This document shows, one piece after another, positions 1-11,844 of a DNA stretch of 64,000 bases. The stretch lies in NCBI GenBank assembly GCA_001772615.1, contig MEUZ01000003.1:286433-350432 (forward strand), given 5' to 3'. The position numbers and the translations under genes are program-made. Origin of the DNA: a candidate division WWE3 bacterium RIFCSPHIGHO2_01_FULL_40_23. GTDB lineage: Bacteria > Patescibacteriota > WWE3 > UBA101185 > 2-01-FULL-41-18. Numbering within the stretch: position 1 is the stretch's first letter; each line of letters begins with the position of its first letter. Below the pieces are notes generated by a model. It saw nothing but the letters and a program-made list of their open reading frames with translations, did not search any database and was not told the origin of the DNA.

Positions 1-3000
1 ACTTTTGAAGGAAAAACATAATTGGATTTTGCCACAGATATTGAGTAGGCTCCGGGTTCCACAATGAACTCATACCTTCCGTAAATATCTGAAATACCCT
101 GAACCTGCTGGCCTGTTTTAGTGTCTTTTAAGGTAATAACAGCAGGATCAAGCGGTTGTTTGGTCACGGAATCGTAAACAACGCCCCAAGGATGCCTTTT
201 CTTTTTTAAGAGACCGAAAAGGGCATACGGTATATTGTAAATCGGTATTTTTGAGATTGCGGTAAGATATATTTGCGTGAAGTTGTAAACACTAGGCAGG
301 TTAAGAAGTGTTACGGAAGTAGCAAGGGTTAAGGCCGATGCCCATCTTTTTGCAAATGCATCGTCTATTGCGGTTACGGCTCTACCAAAAAGAGGAATCT
401 TTTTTAGGGAATCCACTGATCTTTTTATGAGTGTGGGTTTTCTTAGCTCTTCCTTGGTTTCTGGGACTAATGCAAATAGCTCACTTCCCGAAGTAGTTGT
501 TTCAAACTCATGCCTTGCGTCAAACACATAGTTTTTATTCTGGCTCATTACCTCATAGTAGTAAATGGTTCCCGGCTTTAATCCTGTTATCTTAAGTTTA
601 TGTTCAGTTGTCTTTTCTTTTGAATAAACATCCGACCCGTAGTCGTAGCTTAATCCGTAGTTTACCTTGCTTGTGGCATGATGATTTGTTTTCCAGTAAA
701 TAACAGCGTAGTCCGTACCTACTTCTATTACCTTTACATCACTGATTATGGTGGGATCCCTGTCAAACCACACCTCGGCGGTAATGACTATGTTTTCAAC
801 AAGTTGGTCTATTACAGGCTGTATGGGACTTAAAAGATTTCCCGCAAACTCAATTAGTTCGGCAGGAAGTAAAGAAATAGCATCAGCTAAACCATCGGCT
901 ACGGTAGTTACAACGGTTGTTACGGTATCTACGGTATCCCAATATAAATCGGTAACTGCATCTACCACGTCTTCAATGATGGGAGTAATGGGTTCAATTA
1001 TGGAAGGGGGGGGAGTTTCGGATGGTGTCACTGTTGGTGTGACGGTTTCTGAAGGAATTGGAGTTGGGGTAGGTGTTGGGGTAGGAACGGGCGGGGGTTC
1101 CGAGATGGTAAGGTTAAATGTCTTTGACTCCCCTTCATTATCAAGTTCGTCCTTTCCGGATAGAGTTATTCTGTAATCACCATAGGGCATATCTTCATTT
1201 ACCCTGTAAGAAAAATCCGAATATTTATCCGATGTGTTCTTGGTGTTATCCGTTACCTCTGATCCATCAGAGGAAAAGAAGGTATCGGAGATGTTGATGT
1301 TTGAGATAAGGAATGTTGAATAGGTTCCAAGAGCCCCCTTCTTTTCTATTGTCAGTTTAACTTCTTTAGGGCCGACGGCTACCTCATTCTGCTCGCTGTC
1401 CCCATTTAGCGGATCAGTTATCTTTCCGTAAAAGGTTGGCCTTTGGCTTGTTATGTCAAAGGAGCTTCCAGACGCGTTAGAGCTATCTACTCTATTTAGA
1501 TTTACCGTTGGGCCCGTGAGATCAACAAAGACTGTTGATGATTCAGTTCTATCGTTATCCGCATCATCTATAGCCTTGACAGTCCATCTTCTTTTACCTT
1601 CTTTAAGCTTTCCGTCATTTCCCGATCCCCATGATCCTGATGATTTGGTATAAAGGGATATCTTATCATCAGAGTCGGAGGAAGTATTAAAACCGCTGTA
1701 GGAAATTACATAGCTTGACGTCTTTTTATCTTTTGTTCCGCTAGGCTTGATGTTTTCTATCTTAAAGTCACCGCTTGCTCCGTTATCTACACTAAAGGTA
1801 TAACTGTCAAGACCGTCATCATCTATAGCACCTTCCCATTTAAAGGTTGGTCTTTGATCATTGATGTAAGACTTATCATCAGGAAGGATGAGATCAAAAG
1901 ATTCAGGGTCTGTAGTATCATCAGAAGTAGCCGGGCCTGTTATCAGTTTTGAGATAGTTGCGGCAAAGGCTTCATTTCCAAAGTTATCTATAGCCCATAT
2001 TCTAAAGTAGTATGTGCTGCCGGTTGTTAAGCCGGTTATTATGGTGGAGGTAGCTGAAACATTGGTTAAGTCTGTATCATCGCTGTTATCCCATTCTGAA
2101 GCCGTTCCACTCCTTGCTTCTACATCAGTCTGATTTGTTCCATACCATATTTCATAATGGTTAAAGTTAGCTTCCGTTGCTCCTGCCCAGGTGAGAGGAG
2201 CCGTAGTGGATGTGGAAGTAGCTGTTAAGCCGCTAAGTCCGGATGGATCAAGATTATCAACCTCAAAGGAAGAGGAGGTAGCCACCGAGCCATCTTCCGA
2301 GAAATCACTTGGAGTTACCCTAACTCTGATATCCGTCTGGTTGGTGTCATCTAAAGATCCGTTACCATTTGATGATGATTTGGTATCCCATACTACGGTT
2401 AAGGTAATACTCCCCGTGGATGTGTCTATGGGATTGGACTGACCTACCTGGTAAGTGTCGGAGTCACTAAGGCTAACTGATCCTCCCGAAGGAGTAGCGG
2501 ATACTAGATCCAAATCATACCAGCTTGTCCCTGCATCATCCGAGTATTCAACCTTAAGTCTTGTATCCTGGCTATCAGTTTCTGAAACCGTAGTAGAGAA
2601 TGTAATGTATCCTGTTCCATCAGTGGCTTGAGATATGGACGTGGGAGCTGTTGCCGAGGGTGCATTAAAGTCCCATCCTGTGTTATTTAAAGAGTTGGTG
2701 ATATTAAACCCCGAAGTTTCAATAAAAGTAGAATTGACATTGTAGTTATCTTTTACATCAAGGTAAGATATTGTTCTTGTTCCTTGAGGGTCTATCTGGG
2801 CTTGAGTGTCAGTTATGGAAGACCTTAGAGACAATAGGTTACCTAAAGTACCTGATAGATTCATAGTACCTGTAATAGTCTGGGCTACACTTGCAGGAAA
2901 GGTTAAGGTTCTAGCGGGTGTAGTTATGTTTTTAGTAAGGTTAGTAAAGATTGTAGTGCCTGAAATACTTTGGTCTCCCCCATCAAGCACTACACTACCG

Positions 3001-6000
3001 CTTCTTGGTGTAAAAGTATCCGAGTTGCTCCAGTCCCCTCCTACATTTATCTGGTTACTGACTCCGGATTTAGTGTCAAGTGTTCCCCCCGTTATGGTTA
3101 AATCGTCATCTACATCTAAAGGATCCTGAAGTTCAAGAGTTAAAGATCCACCCCCATCATTAATAGTAAGATCATTAAAGGAATCCCCACCGGATGTTAA
3201 CGTTTTGGTTCCGCTCGTCCCGTTAAAGTTAACCAAGCCCGAGTTATGGGTAAAGTTTGCAGAGTTGGTGAAGTTTCCTCCGATGTTTAAAGTTGTGGGA
3301 GAGACAAAAGTCCCACCGGAAACCGTAACGTTATCTGTTACTGTTCTGGAGGAAATAGCCATTGTAGTAAAACCTGCGGACAAAGCGTTCATTTCATTCT
3401 GGGTTAAGGCTCTGGTGTACACTCTTACTTCGTCTATTTGGCCGTCATAGTCATTTCCAGATTTATCCTCATCTATTCCTATCGAACTTCTCTGGCTGGC
3501 TGTGTTTGAAGTGGATGTTGCGGTAAAAGTTATCGTGCCCGTAGCGGATTGAGAGACACTGTTAAGATACATGGTAACGGTATCGTTGGTATAGTCTATA
3601 GTGCAAACAACGTGATACCAAAGACCGGTAATAAGATTGGTAGCAGAGGTAGTTTTGGTTTGAACTGCTTCAGTATCACCGGCGGAACCAAAGCACTGCA
3701 GTTCATCACCGCTTGTCGCAAATCCCGCGCGGGTATCGGCGGTGCTATCCCCTGTAGATAAGCCAAAGATCTGATCAACCCCGGAATTGGAGTCTTTTCT
3801 TATCCAGGCGGCCATGGTAAAGACACTAATATTTTGAGCGAGATTTAAGCTATCACCCATGTTGAGGTAATCTCCAGCTCCATCAAAGTCCATGGCAAAA
3901 GGGTTGGTGTCTTCTATGTCAGGGGCAGTTGCCGTAAAAACAGCGTTGGTCGGTGTAGCGGTATTATTGTTGGTAGATGAATCTTCCACTGTTCCACTCC
4001 CTTCATTCATTTTCCAGTACCCAACTTCGGAGCTAGTTAAAGTGTCCGACGTAGGTGCGTCAAGCGTGTCAGAGGCATCAGTGAATAACACAGTGAGATT
4101 TTTGTAGGGCCAATCCCTGATTGGGAATGATTCAGCCGATCCGTCTCCATCTCCTTTATATGTAACAGTGGTGCCTGTGTTGAGGGTAGGCGTTTCTATG
4201 GGATCTGAACCGACTAGTCTTAGAGTCCCCCCGTCTTCCACGGTAAAAGTTGAGCCGCAGTCAAAGGAATAGCCATTGGTGTCAAAAATGCCCTCAACAA
4301 CGGTGCAGGTCTGGCTACTGGTTCTAAAGCCGGAGATAAGAGATGCGGCGTTGGAGCCCGTTTTATTAATCCTTAGAACTGAGGAGAAAGTACCACCAGT
4401 CATGCTAAGTGTTTGAGCGGCCGATCCCGTGAGGTCAATGGTTAGGTTCGCCCCTCCAAAAGTCCCTCCTGTCTGCGAAAAATTGCCGGTGACTGTAAAG
4501 GAAACTGCGGACGCGGGGTTTAAAATAAGTGTGCCTATTACGGTTAAGTCACCCATGGCGCAACTATCGTTTAATGCAAGGTCATCCGATCCACCCTTGT
4601 TTATAGTCATAGAATCCCAGGTAACTGTGCCGCACGTTAAAGTGTCATCGCCGAGGGATGAATTTAAAGTTAAATCTATGCCGTCGGGAAGCACATTTCC
4701 GCTGTTATTAATGCTGTCAGTCACACTTAAGGTGGTAATACTGGGGAATGTACCCCCGTTAAGAGTCAGATTACCGGTGAGTGTAATGGTGGTGCCTGTC
4801 ATGATAAGTTCCGCACCAACGTTTGAGGTGTAGCTTCCGGTTGATGTCCAGTTCCCGGTGATGTTAATAGTGCCGTTGTTAGTTATGGCTCCTGAAGTTG
4901 AGGGATTGGTACCGGCTATGGGTATTATGCAACTACTAGTAAATGTAATACCATGCGTTGAAGCCTTACTCAAGGTTACGGAATTCCAGGTAACTGTTCC
5001 GCACGTTAAAGTGTCATCGCCGAGAGAATCAGTTAATGTCAAATCTATGCCGTTAGGGAGCAAATTTGTTGCGTTATAAAGGTCGCCGGCCACGCTTAAA
5101 GTGGTGATGCCTGCAGGGAAAGTGCCCCCGTTAAGAATTAAAGTCCCGGCGGTAATGGATGTACCTGTCACTGTCAGGAACGACCCAGCGTTTTGTGTGT
5201 AGGGTCCGCTGTGAGTCCAGTTACCAGTTATGTTAATGGTGCCGTTGTTTTTTAGAACCGCTGTTGTGGTTGGATTAGTGCCGGCTATGGGAAGTACGCA
5301 GCTGCTACCTATGTTCATGTCGTATTGTAAACCCTTGGATATAGTTACGGAATTCCAGGTAACTGTTCCGCAAGTCAAAGTATCATCACCGGAAGTATTG
5401 GTTAATGTTAAATCTATGCCATTGGGAAGCACATTGCCGGTGTTATTCAGGCTGTCACCTACGCTTAAAGTGGTGACACCTGCGGGGAAAGTACCTCCGT
5501 TAAGGGTGATTACTCCCCCCGTGAATGTAACAGAAGTACCTGTCATAATAAGGAACGCCCCTGTGTTTGATATATAACCCCCGTTGTGAGTCCAGTTACC
5601 AGTTATGTCAATAGTGCCGTTGTTTGTGATAGCTGCGGTGGTAGACGGATCTGTGCCTGCTATGGGGAATGTGCAGTTGCTTGAGATTGTGACAGAGTTT
5701 GAGGAGGAACCTTTACTGATATTTATGGCATTAAATGTGACTGAATTGCAGGAATAAACGGAGGTGGTAGTGCCATCAAAAGTTATTGTTCCACCGCCAG
5801 CGCTAAATACGGGGGAACCCGAGATGGTCAGGGAGGAGGAAATAGTCATTGTTTCGGAAGTGGCGGTAAAAGTTCCTGCAGATAGTGTGAAGGCTCCATT
5901 CAGGTCAATTGTTTGGGAGGTACTGTCAAAAGTACCGGCCGCCTGATCAAAGTTACTGGAACCGATTGCTAAACCCGTGTTTGCGGTAATGATACCCGTG

Positions 6001-6353
6001 TATCCGGAATTAATATCAATGCCTGCTACTGAACCCGCAAAGCCTGAATCAATGTTGGAGTTTTTGGTTGATGTTGAACTAAAAGTCGCGATGTCTGATG
6101 ACCCGGGTTGCGTATCATCTGACCAGTTAGCATCACATGACCACTTTTCCCCGTCTCCCACACCTCCCCCGCATGTACCATCTGTTCCCTCCCCATCCCA
6201 GGTTCTTACTACTGCGTAAGATTTCCCGGAATACAAAAGAAGTAAGAATATAAAAATACACAGAGCTGCAAAAAACCTTAAGCAGACGTTTACAAAATTA
6301 ATTTTTGCAAAAGCAAAAACACCGAAACTTAATCCGCGGTTAGAAAATTTCAT
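1..6353 (-). CDS. Giant secreted/surface repeat protein, partial: the C-terminus lies beyond the window start. It is interrupted by paired frameshifts near 5100 and 4978.
   Basis: The ATG at 6353-6351 opens MKFSNRGLSFGVFAFAKINFVNVCLRFFAALCIFIFLLLLYSGKSYAVVRTW..., a signal peptide/TM N-terminus. Manual translation downstream gives Gly/Thr/Asn-rich repeats (GTFTA, ITGNWTHNGG, LTLNGGTFPAG, DDTLTCGTVTW). A LamG_3 motif set spans ~3400-3900 (FAMDFDGAGDYLNMGDSLNLAQNISVFTMAAWIRKDSNSGVDQIFG ... GIDEDKSGNDYDGQIDEVRV). An FN3-like ITGLTTGSTYYFRIWAIDNFGNE sits at ~1980-2040 and a PT linker PTPTPTPIPSETVTPTVTPS at ~1020-1080. Frame 0 relative to 6353 was spot-checked open at 1020, 1980, 3420-3900 and 4440-4979. 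The ORF track lists no minus-strand ORF here. Confidence 0.75.
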   Translation of the reverse strand, partial: MKFSNRGLSFGVFAFAKINFVNVCLRFFAALCIFIFLLLLYSGKSYAVVRTWDGEGTDGTCGGGVGDGEKWSCDANWSDDTQPGSSDIATFSSTSTKNSNIDSGFAGSVAGIDINSGYTGIITANTGLAIGSSNFDQAAGTFDSTSQTIDLNGAFTLSAGTFTATSETMTISSSLTISGSPVFSAGGGTITFDGTTTSVYSCNSVTFNAINISKGSSSNSVTISSNCTFPIAGTDPSTTAAITNNGTIDITGNWTHNGGYISNTGAFLIMTGTSVTFTGGVITLNGGTFPAGVTTLSVGDSLNNTGNVLPNGIDLTLTNTSGDDTLTCGTVTWNSVTISKGLQYDMNIGSSCVLPIAGTNPTTTAVLKNNGTINITGNWTHSGPYTQNAGSFLTVTGTSITAGTLILNGGTFPAGITTLSVAGDLYNATNLLPNGIDLTLTDSLGDDTLTCGTVTWNSVTLSKASTHGITFTSSCIIPIAGTNPSTSGAITNNGTINITGNWTSTGSYTSNVGAELIMTGTTITLTGNLTLNGGTFPSITTLSVTDSINNSGNVLPDGIDLTLNSSLGDDTLTCGTVTWDSMTINKGGSDDLALNDSCAMGDLTVIGTLILNPASAVSFTVTGNFSQTGGTFGGANLTIDLTGSAAQTLSMTGGTFSSVLRINKTGSNAASLISGFRTSSQTCTVVEGIFDTNGYSFDCGSTFTVEDGGTLRLVGSDPIETPTLNTGTTVTYKGDGDGSAESFPIRDWPYKNLTVLFTDASDTLDAPTSDTLTSSEVGYWKMNEGSGTVEDSSTNNNTATPTNAVFTATAPDIEDTNPFAMDFDGAGDYLNMGDSLNLAQNISVFTMAAWIRKDSNSGVDQIFGLSTGDSTADTRAGFATSGDELQCFGSAGDTEAVQTKTTSATNLITGLWYHVVCTIDYTNDTVTMYLNSVSQSATGTITFTATSTSNTASQRSSIGIDEDKSGNDYDGQIDEVRVYTRALTQNEMNALSAGFTTMAISSRTVTDNVTVSGGTFVSPTTLNIGGNFTNSANFTHNSGLVNFNGTSGTKTLTSGGDSFNDLTINDGGGSLTLELQDPLDVDDDLTITGGTLDTKSGVSNQINVGGDWSNSDTFTPRSGSVVLDGGDQSISGTTIFTNLTKNITTPARTLTFPASVAQTITGTMNLSGTLGNLLSLRSSITDTQAQIDPQGTRTISYLDVKDNYNVNSTFIETSGFNITNSLNNTGWDFNAPSATAPTSISQATDGTGYITFSTTVSETDSQDTRLKVEYSDDAGTSWYDLDLVSATPSGGSVSLSDSDTYQVGQSNPIDTSTGSITLTVVWDTKSSSNGNGSLDDTNQTDIRVRVTPSDFSEDGSVATSSSFEVDNLDPSGLSGLTATSTSTTAPLTWAGATEANFNHYEIWYGTNQTDVEARSGTASEWDNSDDTDLTNVSATSTIITGLTTGSTYYFRIWAIDNFGNEAFAATISKLITGPATSDDTTDPESFDLILPDDKSYINDQRPTFKWEGAIDDDGLDSYTFSVDNGASGDFKIENIKPSGTKDKKTSSYVISYSGFNTSSDSDDKISLYTKSSGSWGSGNDGKLKEGKRRWTVKAIDDADNDRTESSTVFVDLTGPTVNLNRVDSSNASGSSFDITSQRPTFYGKITDPLNGDSEQNEVAVGPKEVKLTIEKKGALGTYSTFLISNINISDTFFSSDGSEVTDNTKNTSDKYSDFSYRVNEDMPYGDYRITLSGKDELDNEGESKTFNLTISEPPPVPTPTPTPTPIPSETVTPTVTPSETPPPSIIEPITPIIEDVVDAVTDLYWDTVDTVTTVVTTVADGLADAISLLPAELIEFAGNLLSPIQPVIDQLVENIVITAEVWFDRDPTIISDVKVIEVGTDYAVIYWKTNHHATSKVNYGLSYDYGSDVYSKEKTTEHKLKITGLKPGTIYYYEVMSQNKNYVFDARHEFETTTSGSELFALVPETKEELRKPTLIKRSVDSLKKIPLFGRAVTAIDDAFAKRWASALTLATSVTLLNLPSVYNFTQIYLTAISKIPIYNIPYALFGLLKKKRHPWGVVYDSVTKQPLDPAVITLKDTKTGQQVQGISDIYGRYEFIVEPGAYSISVAKSNYVFPSK
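4440..5760 (-). repeat. Tandem array of about 3.5 near-identical ~369-bp (~123-aa) coding repeats inside the giant gene
   Basis: The motif gtaactgt(t/g)ccgca(c/a)gt(t/c)aaag recurs at 4621, 4991 and 5359, with spacings of 370 and 368 bp. The translated units are nearly identical: ...PIAGT(D/N)P(S/T)T..ITNNGTI(D/N)ITGNWT...LNGGTFP...NGIDLTL...GDDTLTCGTVTW. Confidence 0.85.
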
Positions 6354-6402
6354 TTGTATTTAAATTTTACATGTGGACGACGGACATTTCCACCTCTATG
6401 AT

Positions 6403-6487
6403 GTCATTCTGGTGAAAGCCCAGAATCTAGGATTATAGATCCCGGGTCAAGCCCGGGATGACATGAAGTCAGTTCAGGATGACAAGC
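6403..6487. repeat. Array of 2-3 short hairpin repeats (GTCAT-stem-loop-ATC family) in the tsaB / giant-gene intergenic region
   Basis: Unit one is gtcatTCTGGtgaaagcCCAGAatc. Unit two is gATCCCGGGtcaagCCCGGGATgacat. A half-unit tcaggatgac follows. The same flank motif recurs at 20862-20952, 23323-23336 and 50696-50760. Confidence 0.7.
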
Positions 6488-6496
6488 GATGCGGAT

Positions 6497-6808
6497 TCAA
6501 GAAGGCTCGTCAAACTTACTTCGTTGATAATTTGGGATAATTAACCTTTTAGAACTCTTTTTTAATACGGCCCAGTTTAAAGCATTCACAACCGCAGCCG
6601 AAGCTTTTAATCCCGTAAAAGAACCCGGACCTTCATTCATCTCAAAAGAAGTGATATCGATAACTTCAAGTTTATTTTTTCTAAAAAGTTTCTCAAGAGA
6701 TGAAACTACATCAATACTCCCCAAGATTTCATCCAAAACCTTATTATCTTTATACAAGATCACTTTATCATTTCCTCTTTCAGTACAATCAATGTAAATC
6801 CGATACAT
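6497..6808 (-). CDS. tsaB: TsaB/YeaZ-like t6A biosynthesis protein, N-terminal domain only (103 aa, apparently truncated)
   Basis: Carries the GPGSFTGLKASAAVVNALNWAV motif typical of the TsaB N-terminal domain. It ends directly at the hairpin-repeat array. Confidence 0.6.
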   Translation of the reverse strand: MYRIYIDCTERGNDKVILYKDNKVLDEILGSIDVVSSLEKLFRKNKLEVIDITSFEMNEGPGSFTGLKASAAVVNALNWAVLKKSSKRLIIPNYQRSKFDEPS

Positions 6809-10776: not shown

Positions 10777-11844
10777 CTAAAGTTTAATCTCCGCCTCAAT
10801 GAAATCGTCCAAATTCCCATCAAGAACGGCTTCAGGATTTGTAGACTCAAAGTTCGTCCTCAAATCCTTGACGAGCTTATAAGGCTGAAGAACATAGCTT
10901 CTTATCTGATTTCCCCAACCGGCGCTTTTATGTTCGCCTTTTAAAGCTTTCTTTTCAAGAGAAAGCTTTTCTTCCTCCACTGCGTAAAGCTTTCCCCTTA
11001 AAACCCTTAATGCAAGTTCTCTGTTTCTCCCCTGATACCTTTCTGTCTGGCATTCAACCACAATTCCAGTTGGCTTATGCCTAAGCCTAACTGCGGTTGA
11101 GACTTTATTAACATTTTGCCCTCCGTGTCCTGATGAATGTATGGCCTCAAACTCCAAATCTTCCGGCTTAATGTCAACTTCTATATCTTCGTTTATTACC
11201 GGAAGTACCTCAACCAAAGCAAAAGATGTCTGCCTTAAGTTATTCGCATTAAAAGGGGAGAGCCTAACGAGCCTGTGCGTTCCTGCTTCTTTCTTTAAAT
11301 ATCCATAGGCATATTCCCCGTCTACCTCATACGTAATGGATTTAACACCCACTTCTTCGCCCGGAGTTTTGTCAATTTCCATTACCGAAAAACCTTTTGC
11401 CTCGGCATATCTCAAATACATTCTCAAAAGGGTAGACGCCCAGTCGCACGCTTCCGTACCCCCCTGTCCCGCGTGTATTGATAAAATTGCACTCTCTTTA
11501 TCATATTTCCCAGAAAGAAAAGCCTTAATTTCAAGCTTTTTTAATAAACTTTCAAGCTCAACTTCTTCTTCCGATTCAAGATAAAGCTCAATCAGATCCA
11601 CATCTTCAAGCTCTTTTTTAAGGCTTGATAGCTCCTGCATTAAAACCTGCCCCTTTTTAAAATCTTTCCATAAATCTTCCGAGGAAGCCTTTTTTGAAAG
11701 CTCTTCAAGCCTTTTTTTCTTTTCGGAAACGCCAAGTTTGCTCTTTAATTTTTCAAATCTTTCCCTTTGCTCATTCATAGGAAGATTGTATAGGGACACG
11801 GCCCTCCCCGCAAACAACCCCTCATCTGTCTCAACCGGATGCAT
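10777..11844 (-). CDS. prfB: Peptide chain release factor 2
   Basis: GGQ motif (SGHGGQNVNK) and SPF tripeptide (RLSPFNANNLRQTSFA). It is a single uninterrupted ORF with no +1 frameshift site. Confidence 0.9.
   Translation of the reverse strand: MHPVETDEGLFAGRAVSLYNLPMNEQRERFEKLKSKLGVSEKKKRLEELSKKASSEDLWKDFKKGQVLMQELSSLKKELEDVDLIELYLESEEEVELESLLKKLEIKAFLSGKYDKESAILSIHAGQGGTEACDWASTLLRMYLRYAEAKGFSVMEIDKTPGEEVGVKSITYEVDGEYAYGYLKKEAGTHRLVRLSPFNANNLRQTSFALVEVLPVINEDIEVDIKPEDLEFEAIHSSGHGGQNVNKVSTAVRLRHKPTGIVVECQTERYQGRNRELALRVLRGKLYAVEEEKLSLEKKALKGEHKSAGWGNQIRSYVLQPYKLVKDLRTNFESTNPEAVLDGNLDDFIEAEIKL

Follow-up and report, generated by a model that had tools for sequence, protein, structure and literature searches.

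Hardly any Candidate Phyla Radiation (CPR) bacteria outside Saccharibacteria and Absconditabacteria have a known host, and the molecules by which CPR cells attach to other cells are largely unknown. Does one end of a 64,000-nucleotide stretch from the candidate division WWE3 bacterium RIFCSPHIGHO2_01_FULL_40_23 (contig MEUZ01000003.1 of GenBank assembly GCA_001772615.1, positions 286,433 to 350,432 of the forward strand; hereafter, the window) encode a molecule of this kind? A preliminary description, made from the letters of the window, had placed a giant gene for a secreted, lectin-bearing protein on the minus strand over positions 1-6353 and had supposed a small-genome source, which the origin of the window in a CPR bacterium of candidate division WWE3 confirms. 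The analysis reported here established that this gene, which we designate g1, is real and resolved its product into a lectin-bearing head, a stalk and a C-terminal anchor; taken together, these features make it probable, with appreciable room for other readings, that g1 is a glycan-binding cell-surface fibre (adhesin) of the WWE3 bacterium.

Gene extent and database status

A stop-codon scan of frame 1 of the minus strand detected zero stops downstream of the one at 6362-6360 as far as window position 1, and the other two minus-strand frames contain 212 and 168 stops over the same 6.6 kb. The first ATG of g1 lies at 6353, and the in-window part of the gene comprises 2,117 codons; a stop-free run of 2,117 codons has a chance of ~1e-52 as calculated from base composition. 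The frame leaves the window at position 1, as had been predicted together with a length exceeding 2100 amino acids, and it is free of any interruption, including at the "two indel sites" that the preliminary description had assumed. Only short open reading frames (ORFs) had indeed been listed for this 6.3 kb, all but one of them on the plus strand; this is a listing artefact, g1 being missing because ORFs running off the window end are left out.

Extension of the contig, which had been proposed as a way of locating the 3' end, provided both this end and the C-terminal membrane anchor module. A 416-kb contig in ENA, found by an exact match to the neighbouring M23 peptidase, corresponds to the window (18,785 of 18,785 nucleotides identical), and further matching public contigs from Rifle-type groundwater samples are 100% identical. 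On the public contig, full-length g1 encodes 2,314 amino acids and ends 591 nucleotides past the window, the outlying part containing a second helical hairpin, a second CarboxypepD_reg domain and the stop codon. The gene is not unannotated, as had been implied: its product is deposited in GenBank (OGC50433.1 and OGC55129.1, "hypothetical protein A2716_04475") and in UniProt (A0A1F4VDA4, "Fibronectin type-III domain-containing protein", candidate division WWE3). Partial copies of g1 in three other assemblies are identical to it, with no variation in repeat number or sequence between samples. A frameshifted gene or pseudogene is excluded by a frame that is continuous and identical in independent assemblies.

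Architecture of the head

The region following the N-terminal 47 residues was modelled with AlphaFold2 (residues 48-1240, alignment of 38 sequences), yielding an all-beta model (mean predicted local distance difference test score, pLDDT, of 86.9) with short, regularly spaced solenoid strands on both sides of a LamG domain. Stacked coils of such short strands form a right-handed parallel beta-helix of the pectin-lyase-like fold, into which the LamG domain, a jelly-roll beta-sandwich, is set as an insertion between two beta-helix segments. The LamG_3 domain, which the preliminary description had located at ~3400-3900, was confirmed: Pfam Laminin_G_3 (PF13385) matches g1 with 67.4 bits (cut-off 27.6, E 2e-18) over profile positions 1-149 of 151. 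In the comparison of folds, domain 4 of GH43 arabinanase AbnA has a value of 21.4 and tetanus toxin Hc one of 19.4, with 16-17 for sialidase CBM40 modules and 15-17 for pentraxins.

The first beta-helix segment is preceded by a Trp/Cys-rich cap (residues 48-~200, "TWDGEGTDGTCGG..WSCDANWS"), the Cys pair of which (C61/C73) accounts for the Cys-containing N-terminal module recognised earlier. This cap is the module most often shared with database homologues (~94 of 120). Next to it come tandem repeats of ~123 amino acids, each with a conserved Cys pair according to the repeat alignment. At least four such repeats of beta-solenoid-like character had been described: their all-beta build with stacked short strands is reproduced by the model and three of them are strong (repeats 1-3 being 59-64% identical by self-BLAST), the fourth being present in a degenerate form (38%); the self-BLAST spans are residues 201-322, 321-445, 445-568 and 568-673. 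At the DNA level the repeats have a period of 369 nucleotides and an identity of only 70-75%, and the duplications are therefore old. The repeat unit also matches residues 985-1176 by BLAST, showing that the second beta-helix segment, which is common to ~80 of the 120 homologues, is related to the N-terminal repeats. None of the Beta_helix, Pectate_lyase, PATR or two-partner secretion (TPS)/haemagglutination families matched g1 at E<=1 in Pfam or NCBIfam; NCBIfam scans of g1 gave nothing meaningful, and a comparison of the head with PDB sequences gave zero matches.

Signal-peptide-like N-terminus and stalk

The N-terminal 47 residues look like a Sec/signal peptidase I signal peptide, in agreement with the earlier proposal of such a peptide at the ATG at 6353. 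Judged by eye from translation and hydropathy, they comprise a segment with Lys/Arg (residues 2-26), a hydrophobic core (residues 26-42, Kyte-Doolittle values up to 2.6) and S-Y-A|V at residues 45-48; the homologues aligned to g1 carry an AxA motif directly before a conserved TWDG, and no lipobox was found in the g1 N-terminus.

Beta-helix segment 2 is followed by a beta-rich domain (residues 1231-1370) that is 40-63% identical across many homologues and matched no Pfam family. Next comes a fibronectin type III (FN3) domain, anticipated near position 2000 as an FN3-like module and detected by Pfam fn3 (PF00041; 1.2e-8, 35.4 bits, cut-off 25), which has the FN3 sandwich fold. The Pro/Thr linker reported near 1050 was likewise recovered, downstream of the Ig-like stalk domains (Table 1). 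A membrane-proximal FN3-like sandwich (residues 1870-1952) is of the purple-acid-phosphatase N-terminal type, with Pfam Pur_ac_phosph_N above its cut-off. Its counterparts in one Beckwithbacteria and one other Patescibacteria genome (L009:2738-3013 and L010:2179-2457) share 66-70% identity with it, and the remainder of the g1 protein reaches at most 52% identity to any homologue; a related-locus search with a single protein returned only two loci, both matching the FN3-like domain. Because residues 1870-1952 are far more conserved than the rest of g1, their sequence suggests a conserved interaction near the membrane or cell wall.

C-terminal anchor module

The C-terminal part of g1 (residues ~1987-2314) consists of two units, each composed of a helical hairpin, a basic motif and a transthyretin-like sandwich. 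They are arranged in the order of a hydrophobic helical pair, "LLKKKRHPWG", CarboxypepD_reg domain 1, "IPMDN..DWNEEEK", a second hairpin, "IKIKPWG" and CarboxypepD_reg domain 2, the module lying at window positions 1-395 and at L007:15953-16942 on the public contig. CarboxypepD_reg (PF13620) scores above the gathering score in g1 and has the seven-strand sandwich fold. Alignments of the C-terminal half were made from trimmed segments, the whole-protein alignment having been discarded as misaligned against N-terminal parts of mosaic homologues. The first helical pair has a low pLDDT (40-60) in the model, and its position is conserved in homologues.

A profile of the anchor only, searched against 1.84 billion representative proteins, matched 21,941 proteins at E<=1e-3; at E<=1e-30 it matched 2,929 clusters (50% identity). 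Where the match was strong and formed a single stretch, the protein, of 265 to 3,490 amino acids, almost always carried the complete anchor at its extreme C-terminus, and the heads joined to it in sampled proteins include PA14, DUF11, Calx-beta, NHL propeller and PG_binding. Stand-alone anchor proteins of 265-350 amino acids, named "carboxypeptidase-like regulatory domain-containing protein", also occur, e.g., in Paceibacterota. One family member (P0299) begins right at the basic motif, without the preceding hydrophobic helix. Beyond the CarboxypepD_reg domains, no dedicated Pfam or NCBIfam model for the module was found, nor was any paper on it in CPR found in the literature searched; an LPXTG-type sortase motif ([LI]PxT[GAS]) is absent from the entire g1 protein.

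All Lys/Arg clusters of the anchor flank the sandwiches. Combined with the positive-inside rule, this arrangement would place both transthyretin-like domains in the cytoplasm and require the spans that precede domain 1 to be odd in number. The models show two helices at this point, which are only weakly hydrophobic in g1, and four full spans would put both sandwich domains and every basic cluster outside. A tentative and rather doubtful proposal is that the module, [helical hairpin - (R/K)KKRxxWG - transthyretin-like sandwich] x2 joined by "IPMDP..DWNQEEK", would represent an undescribed CPR-wide anchoring or sorting device, the cytoplasmic sandwiches of which would link diverse heads to an intracellular partner.

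Table 1. Features of g1 and of its 5' region within the window
Feature	Residues	Position	Strand	Basis
Promoter-like site TGGAAA-17 nt-TAAAAT, 11 nucleotides upstream of the g1 ATG		6364..6392	minus	consensus scan, pattern match only
Start codon and signal-peptide-like N-terminus	1-47	6213..6353	minus	translation, hydropathy
N-terminal cap and beta-helix segment 1	48-790	3984..6212	minus	
Tandem ~123-residue (369-nucleotide) repeats, the fourth degenerate	201-322, 323-445, 446-568, 569-690	4284..5753	minus	self-BLAST
LamG (concanavalin-A-like lectin) jelly-roll	824-987	3393..3884	minus	Pfam Laminin_G_3
Beta-helix segment 2	1000-1230	2664..3356	minus	repeat-unit BLAST, model strands
Conserved beta-rich domain with Asp-box-like "YSDDAGTSWY"	1231-1370	2244..2663	minus	sequence
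Fibronectin type III domain	1375-1463	1965..2231	minus	Pfam fn3
Ig-like stalk domains	1480-1753	1095..1916	minus	sub-threshold Pfam only (Big_13, Y_Y_Y, Ig_J, MG2)
Pro/Thr-rich linker, "EPPPVPTPTPTPTPIPSETVTPTVTPSETPPPS"	1754-1786	996..1094	minus	sequence
Membrane-proximal FN3-like sandwich, "IYWKTNHHATSKVNYG"	1870-1952	498..746	minus	
First hydrophobic helical pair of the anchor	1987-2047	213..395	minus	model helices
Basic motif "LLKKKRHPWG" and start of transthyretin-like (CarboxypepD_reg) domain 1		1..212	minus	

Relatives, genomic context and the paralogue g2

Modules of g1 recur in at least 170 large proteins, the sources of which are Shapiro-, Andersen-, Kerfeld-, Peregrini- and Saccharibacteria, Omnitrophota and Planctomycetota. 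These relatives are mosaics, in which the cap and solenoid are common, the LamG domain is present in about a quarter and the anchor in about twenty. Three homologues sharing the architecture are surrounded by unrelated housekeeping genes, and no conserved operon and no sortase-like, secretion or partner genes were found in their neighbourhoods.

The genes upstream of g1 on the same strand are housekeeping ones (a 103-residue TsaB-like fragment, TsaE, VanZ, M23 peptidase, FtsX, FtsE and release factor 2, RF2). Downstream, past the window, are g2, a 340-residue polytopic membrane protein, an RDD protein and, on the opposite strand, DinB. The next gene after g1, g2 (L007:17020-24474, 2,443 amino acids as called), is 48.5% identical to g1 over the C-terminal ~880 residues only, which correspond to the stalk and anchor; the heads are unrelated. 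The g2 head contains two ~550-residue repeats with Asp-box motifs and gave no Pfam match and no PDB sequence match. The called ATG of g2 leaves it without a signal peptide; because an in-frame TTG 123 nucleotides upstream restores one, the public start of g2 is probably mis-called, as judged from its sequence.

Several further observations were made at this locus. The polytopic membrane protein (no Pfam match) and the RDD-family protein directly follow the two giants on the same strand (L007:24538-26212), and neither was seen beside the three homologues elsewhere. The 103-residue ORF (6497-6808, minus strand) overlaps the end of TsaE and resembles the N-terminal part of the TsaD/TsaB family only below threshold (22.8 bits, cut-off 24.8); a minimal or truncated TsaB is one possible identity. 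The RF2 ORF (10777-11844, minus strand) encodes 355 amino acids in a single frame, and the NCBI record of the same organism gives 333; the discrepancy is a start-site difference. The 143-nucleotide spacer between the TsaB-like ORF and g1 contains hairpin units, two of which, each of 25 nucleotides and in opposite orientation (6403-6427, plus; 6438-6462, minus), share the consensus GTCATYCYGR-loop-YCRGRATS; a partial third, "TGTCATCC", lies at 6477-6484. Nowhere else in the 64-kb window do the units occur, the chance expectation being 0.01. Of the hairpin-repeat array described at 6354-6496, these two units and the partial third stand, and the 5' intergenic region as a whole folds no better than shuffled sequence (z = -1.19).

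Discussion

Proteins of the g1 type are not surprising to a specialist: g1 belongs to the already reported CPR surface proteins with lectin, beta-helix and FN3 domains, and only the widespread undescribed anchor module and the head-swapped tandem paralogue go beyond expectation. CPR bacteria typically have several surface proteins bearing concanavalin/lectin, pectin-lyase-fold, FN3 and beta-propeller domains (Castelle et al. 2017, PMC5220378), and in Absconditicoccaceae a role in host recognition has been proposed for surface proteins of very large size that contain FN3 and concanavalin A domains (PMC13059738). With these, g1 shares the lineage group, the combination of LamG/ConA, beta-helix and FN3, a signal peptide and transmembrane anchoring (both putative in g1), a length above 1,500 amino acids and a proposed host-recognition role; the reports themselves, unlike the present description of g1, are domain inventories. 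No description of a LamG-in-beta-helix architecture combined with a double hairpin/transthyretin-like anchor was found in the literature searched, and a literature search on WWE3 surface proteins yielded nothing relevant.

Functional evidence from a related setting is available for Southlakia epibionticum (Saccharibacteria), in which epibiotic growth requires glycan-binding envelope proteins according to transposon sequencing (Tn-seq; PMC10633639). Like g1, these are CPR envelope proteins with lectin-like/FN3 or dockerin domains, and host glycans are their presumed target, whether for adhesion or for degradation; unlike g1, they carry VCBS and dockerin domains, and the likeness is one of domain description, the genetic evidence being theirs alone. 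Among ultrasmall archaeal symbionts, counterparts are represented by the DPANN "SPEARE" and nanohaloarchaeal LamG proteins, giant, Sec-exported and membrane-anchored, with Ig/FN3-like and LamG domains and a proposed host-binding role (PMC10266531). SPEARE proteins differ from g1 in their size (8,000-9,400 amino acids) and in a VirB4/TraG-like ATPase domain, none of which appeared in Pfam scans of the whole of g1, and we regard the resemblance as analogous, not homologous. The giants of Omnitrophota (>10,000-30,000 amino acids) mostly contain SecA-DEAD domains and many transmembrane regions, and those of the "Dockerin-type", with an extracellular N-terminus and C-terminal transmembrane regions, are proposed attachment factors (West-Roberts et al. 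2023, bioRxiv 10.1101/2023.11.21.568195). Some Omnitrophota proteins share the cap and beta-helix module with g1, whereas g1 itself, at 2,314 amino acids, has neither SecA-DEAD domains nor many transmembrane regions.

Other well-known beta-helix systems are more distant. In contrast to type V passengers (FHA, Fap2), g1 has no outer-membrane barrel and no TPS, PATR or Autotransporter Pfam match; its C-terminus is made of helices and transthyretin-like sandwiches, and it has no TpsB-like neighbour. Unlike adhesins and tailspikes of the beta-helix kind (tapirin of Caldicellulosiruptor, TSP2 of phage CBA120), g1 appears to be anchored by C-terminal membrane helices in an organism that is presumably monoderm, and trimerisation or catalytic features were not recognised in it.

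Several points weigh against an adhesin. The signal peptide has been assigned by eye from the sequence, and the first anchor pair is weakly hydrophobic and modelled with low confidence, which is compatible with more than one membrane topology. The contexts of homologues are not conserved, so the neighbouring genes lend no functional support, and the repeats are without strain-level variation, hence offering at the sequence level no sign of the rapid change common in adhesins. In addition, LamG and beta-helix folds occur in enzymes and structural proteins too. The g1 protein could be a surface-displayed polysaccharide-degrading enzyme, i.e., a lyase or hydrolase with a beta-helix of pectate-lyase or tailspike type and LamG as its carbohydrate-binding module, with which an auxotrophic cell would digest the host envelope or environmental polymers. 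Surface proteins of the "pectin lyase" fold are listed for CPR (PMC5220378), and the neighbouring g2 has Asp-box motifs as in sialidase-type propellers; g1, however, has no Pfam, NCBIfam or PDB sequence match to lyase or glycosidase families, and catalytic residues were not identified in it, leaving an enzymatic role unlikely.

A structural part of the envelope, such as an S-layer-like or wall-spanning scaffold serving integrity or spacing, would fit an anchor that is extremely common and that occurs, too, on small proteins having hardly any head or none, the proximity of g1 to cell-division and wall genes (FtsE, FtsX, M23 peptidase, VanZ) and the presence of SLH or PG_binding domains in homologues from other phyla. 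We consider it improbable nonetheless, given that a single lectin domain combined with a long rod-like build is typical of adhesins, that head-swapped mosaic homologues favour diversified binding over a conserved scaffold, and that the gene neighbourhood is not conserved in homologues. Hardly any credence attaches to the suggested link with a diversity-generating retroelement (DGR), of which g1 would be the variable target. Giant surface proteins are often DGR targets, and CPR genomes are known for their richness in DGRs (bioRxiv 10.1101/2020.04.01.020958), but no reverse transcriptase is among the genes called in the 10 kb to either side and no near-identical template/variable pair was found, all DNA repeats being 70-84% identical and lying within or between g1 and g2; these two results effectively refute the DGR reading. 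Moreover, the g1 sequence is identical in independent samples, and the protein ends in a membrane anchor instead of a C-type-lectin variable region.

For the adhesin, a course of events can be outlined. From the reading frame, the domains with their folds and the recurrence of the anchor, we infer that the g1 precursor would be exported by Sec and then cleaved by signal peptidase I, that its C-terminal helices or module would retain it in the cytoplasmic membrane, and that the stalk would hold the head some tens of nanometres outward as part of a rod-like ectodomain (a rough length estimate based on ~970 beta-helix residues, ~six sandwich domains and the 33-residue Pro/Thr linker). The LamG domain, possibly along with the beta-helix flank, would bind a glycan carried by another cell or by a polymer, and by analogy with the systems compared above, attachment of g1 to a host or partner cell is plausible. 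Because g2 shares the stalk and anchor with g1 but differs in its head, we suggest that the organism may vary its binding by swapping heads on a common chassis.

Overall, g1 provides a concrete and well-modelled attachment candidate for WWE3/Katanobacteria in the form of a lectin head on a beta-helix rod, and g1 and g2 together illustrate a possible variation of binding heads on a shared stalk and anchor. The anchor module could be used as a sequence marker for listing the CPR surface proteome and, if it is indeed a CPR-wide device, the g1/g2 tandem would exemplify the swapping of heads on an anchor chassis.

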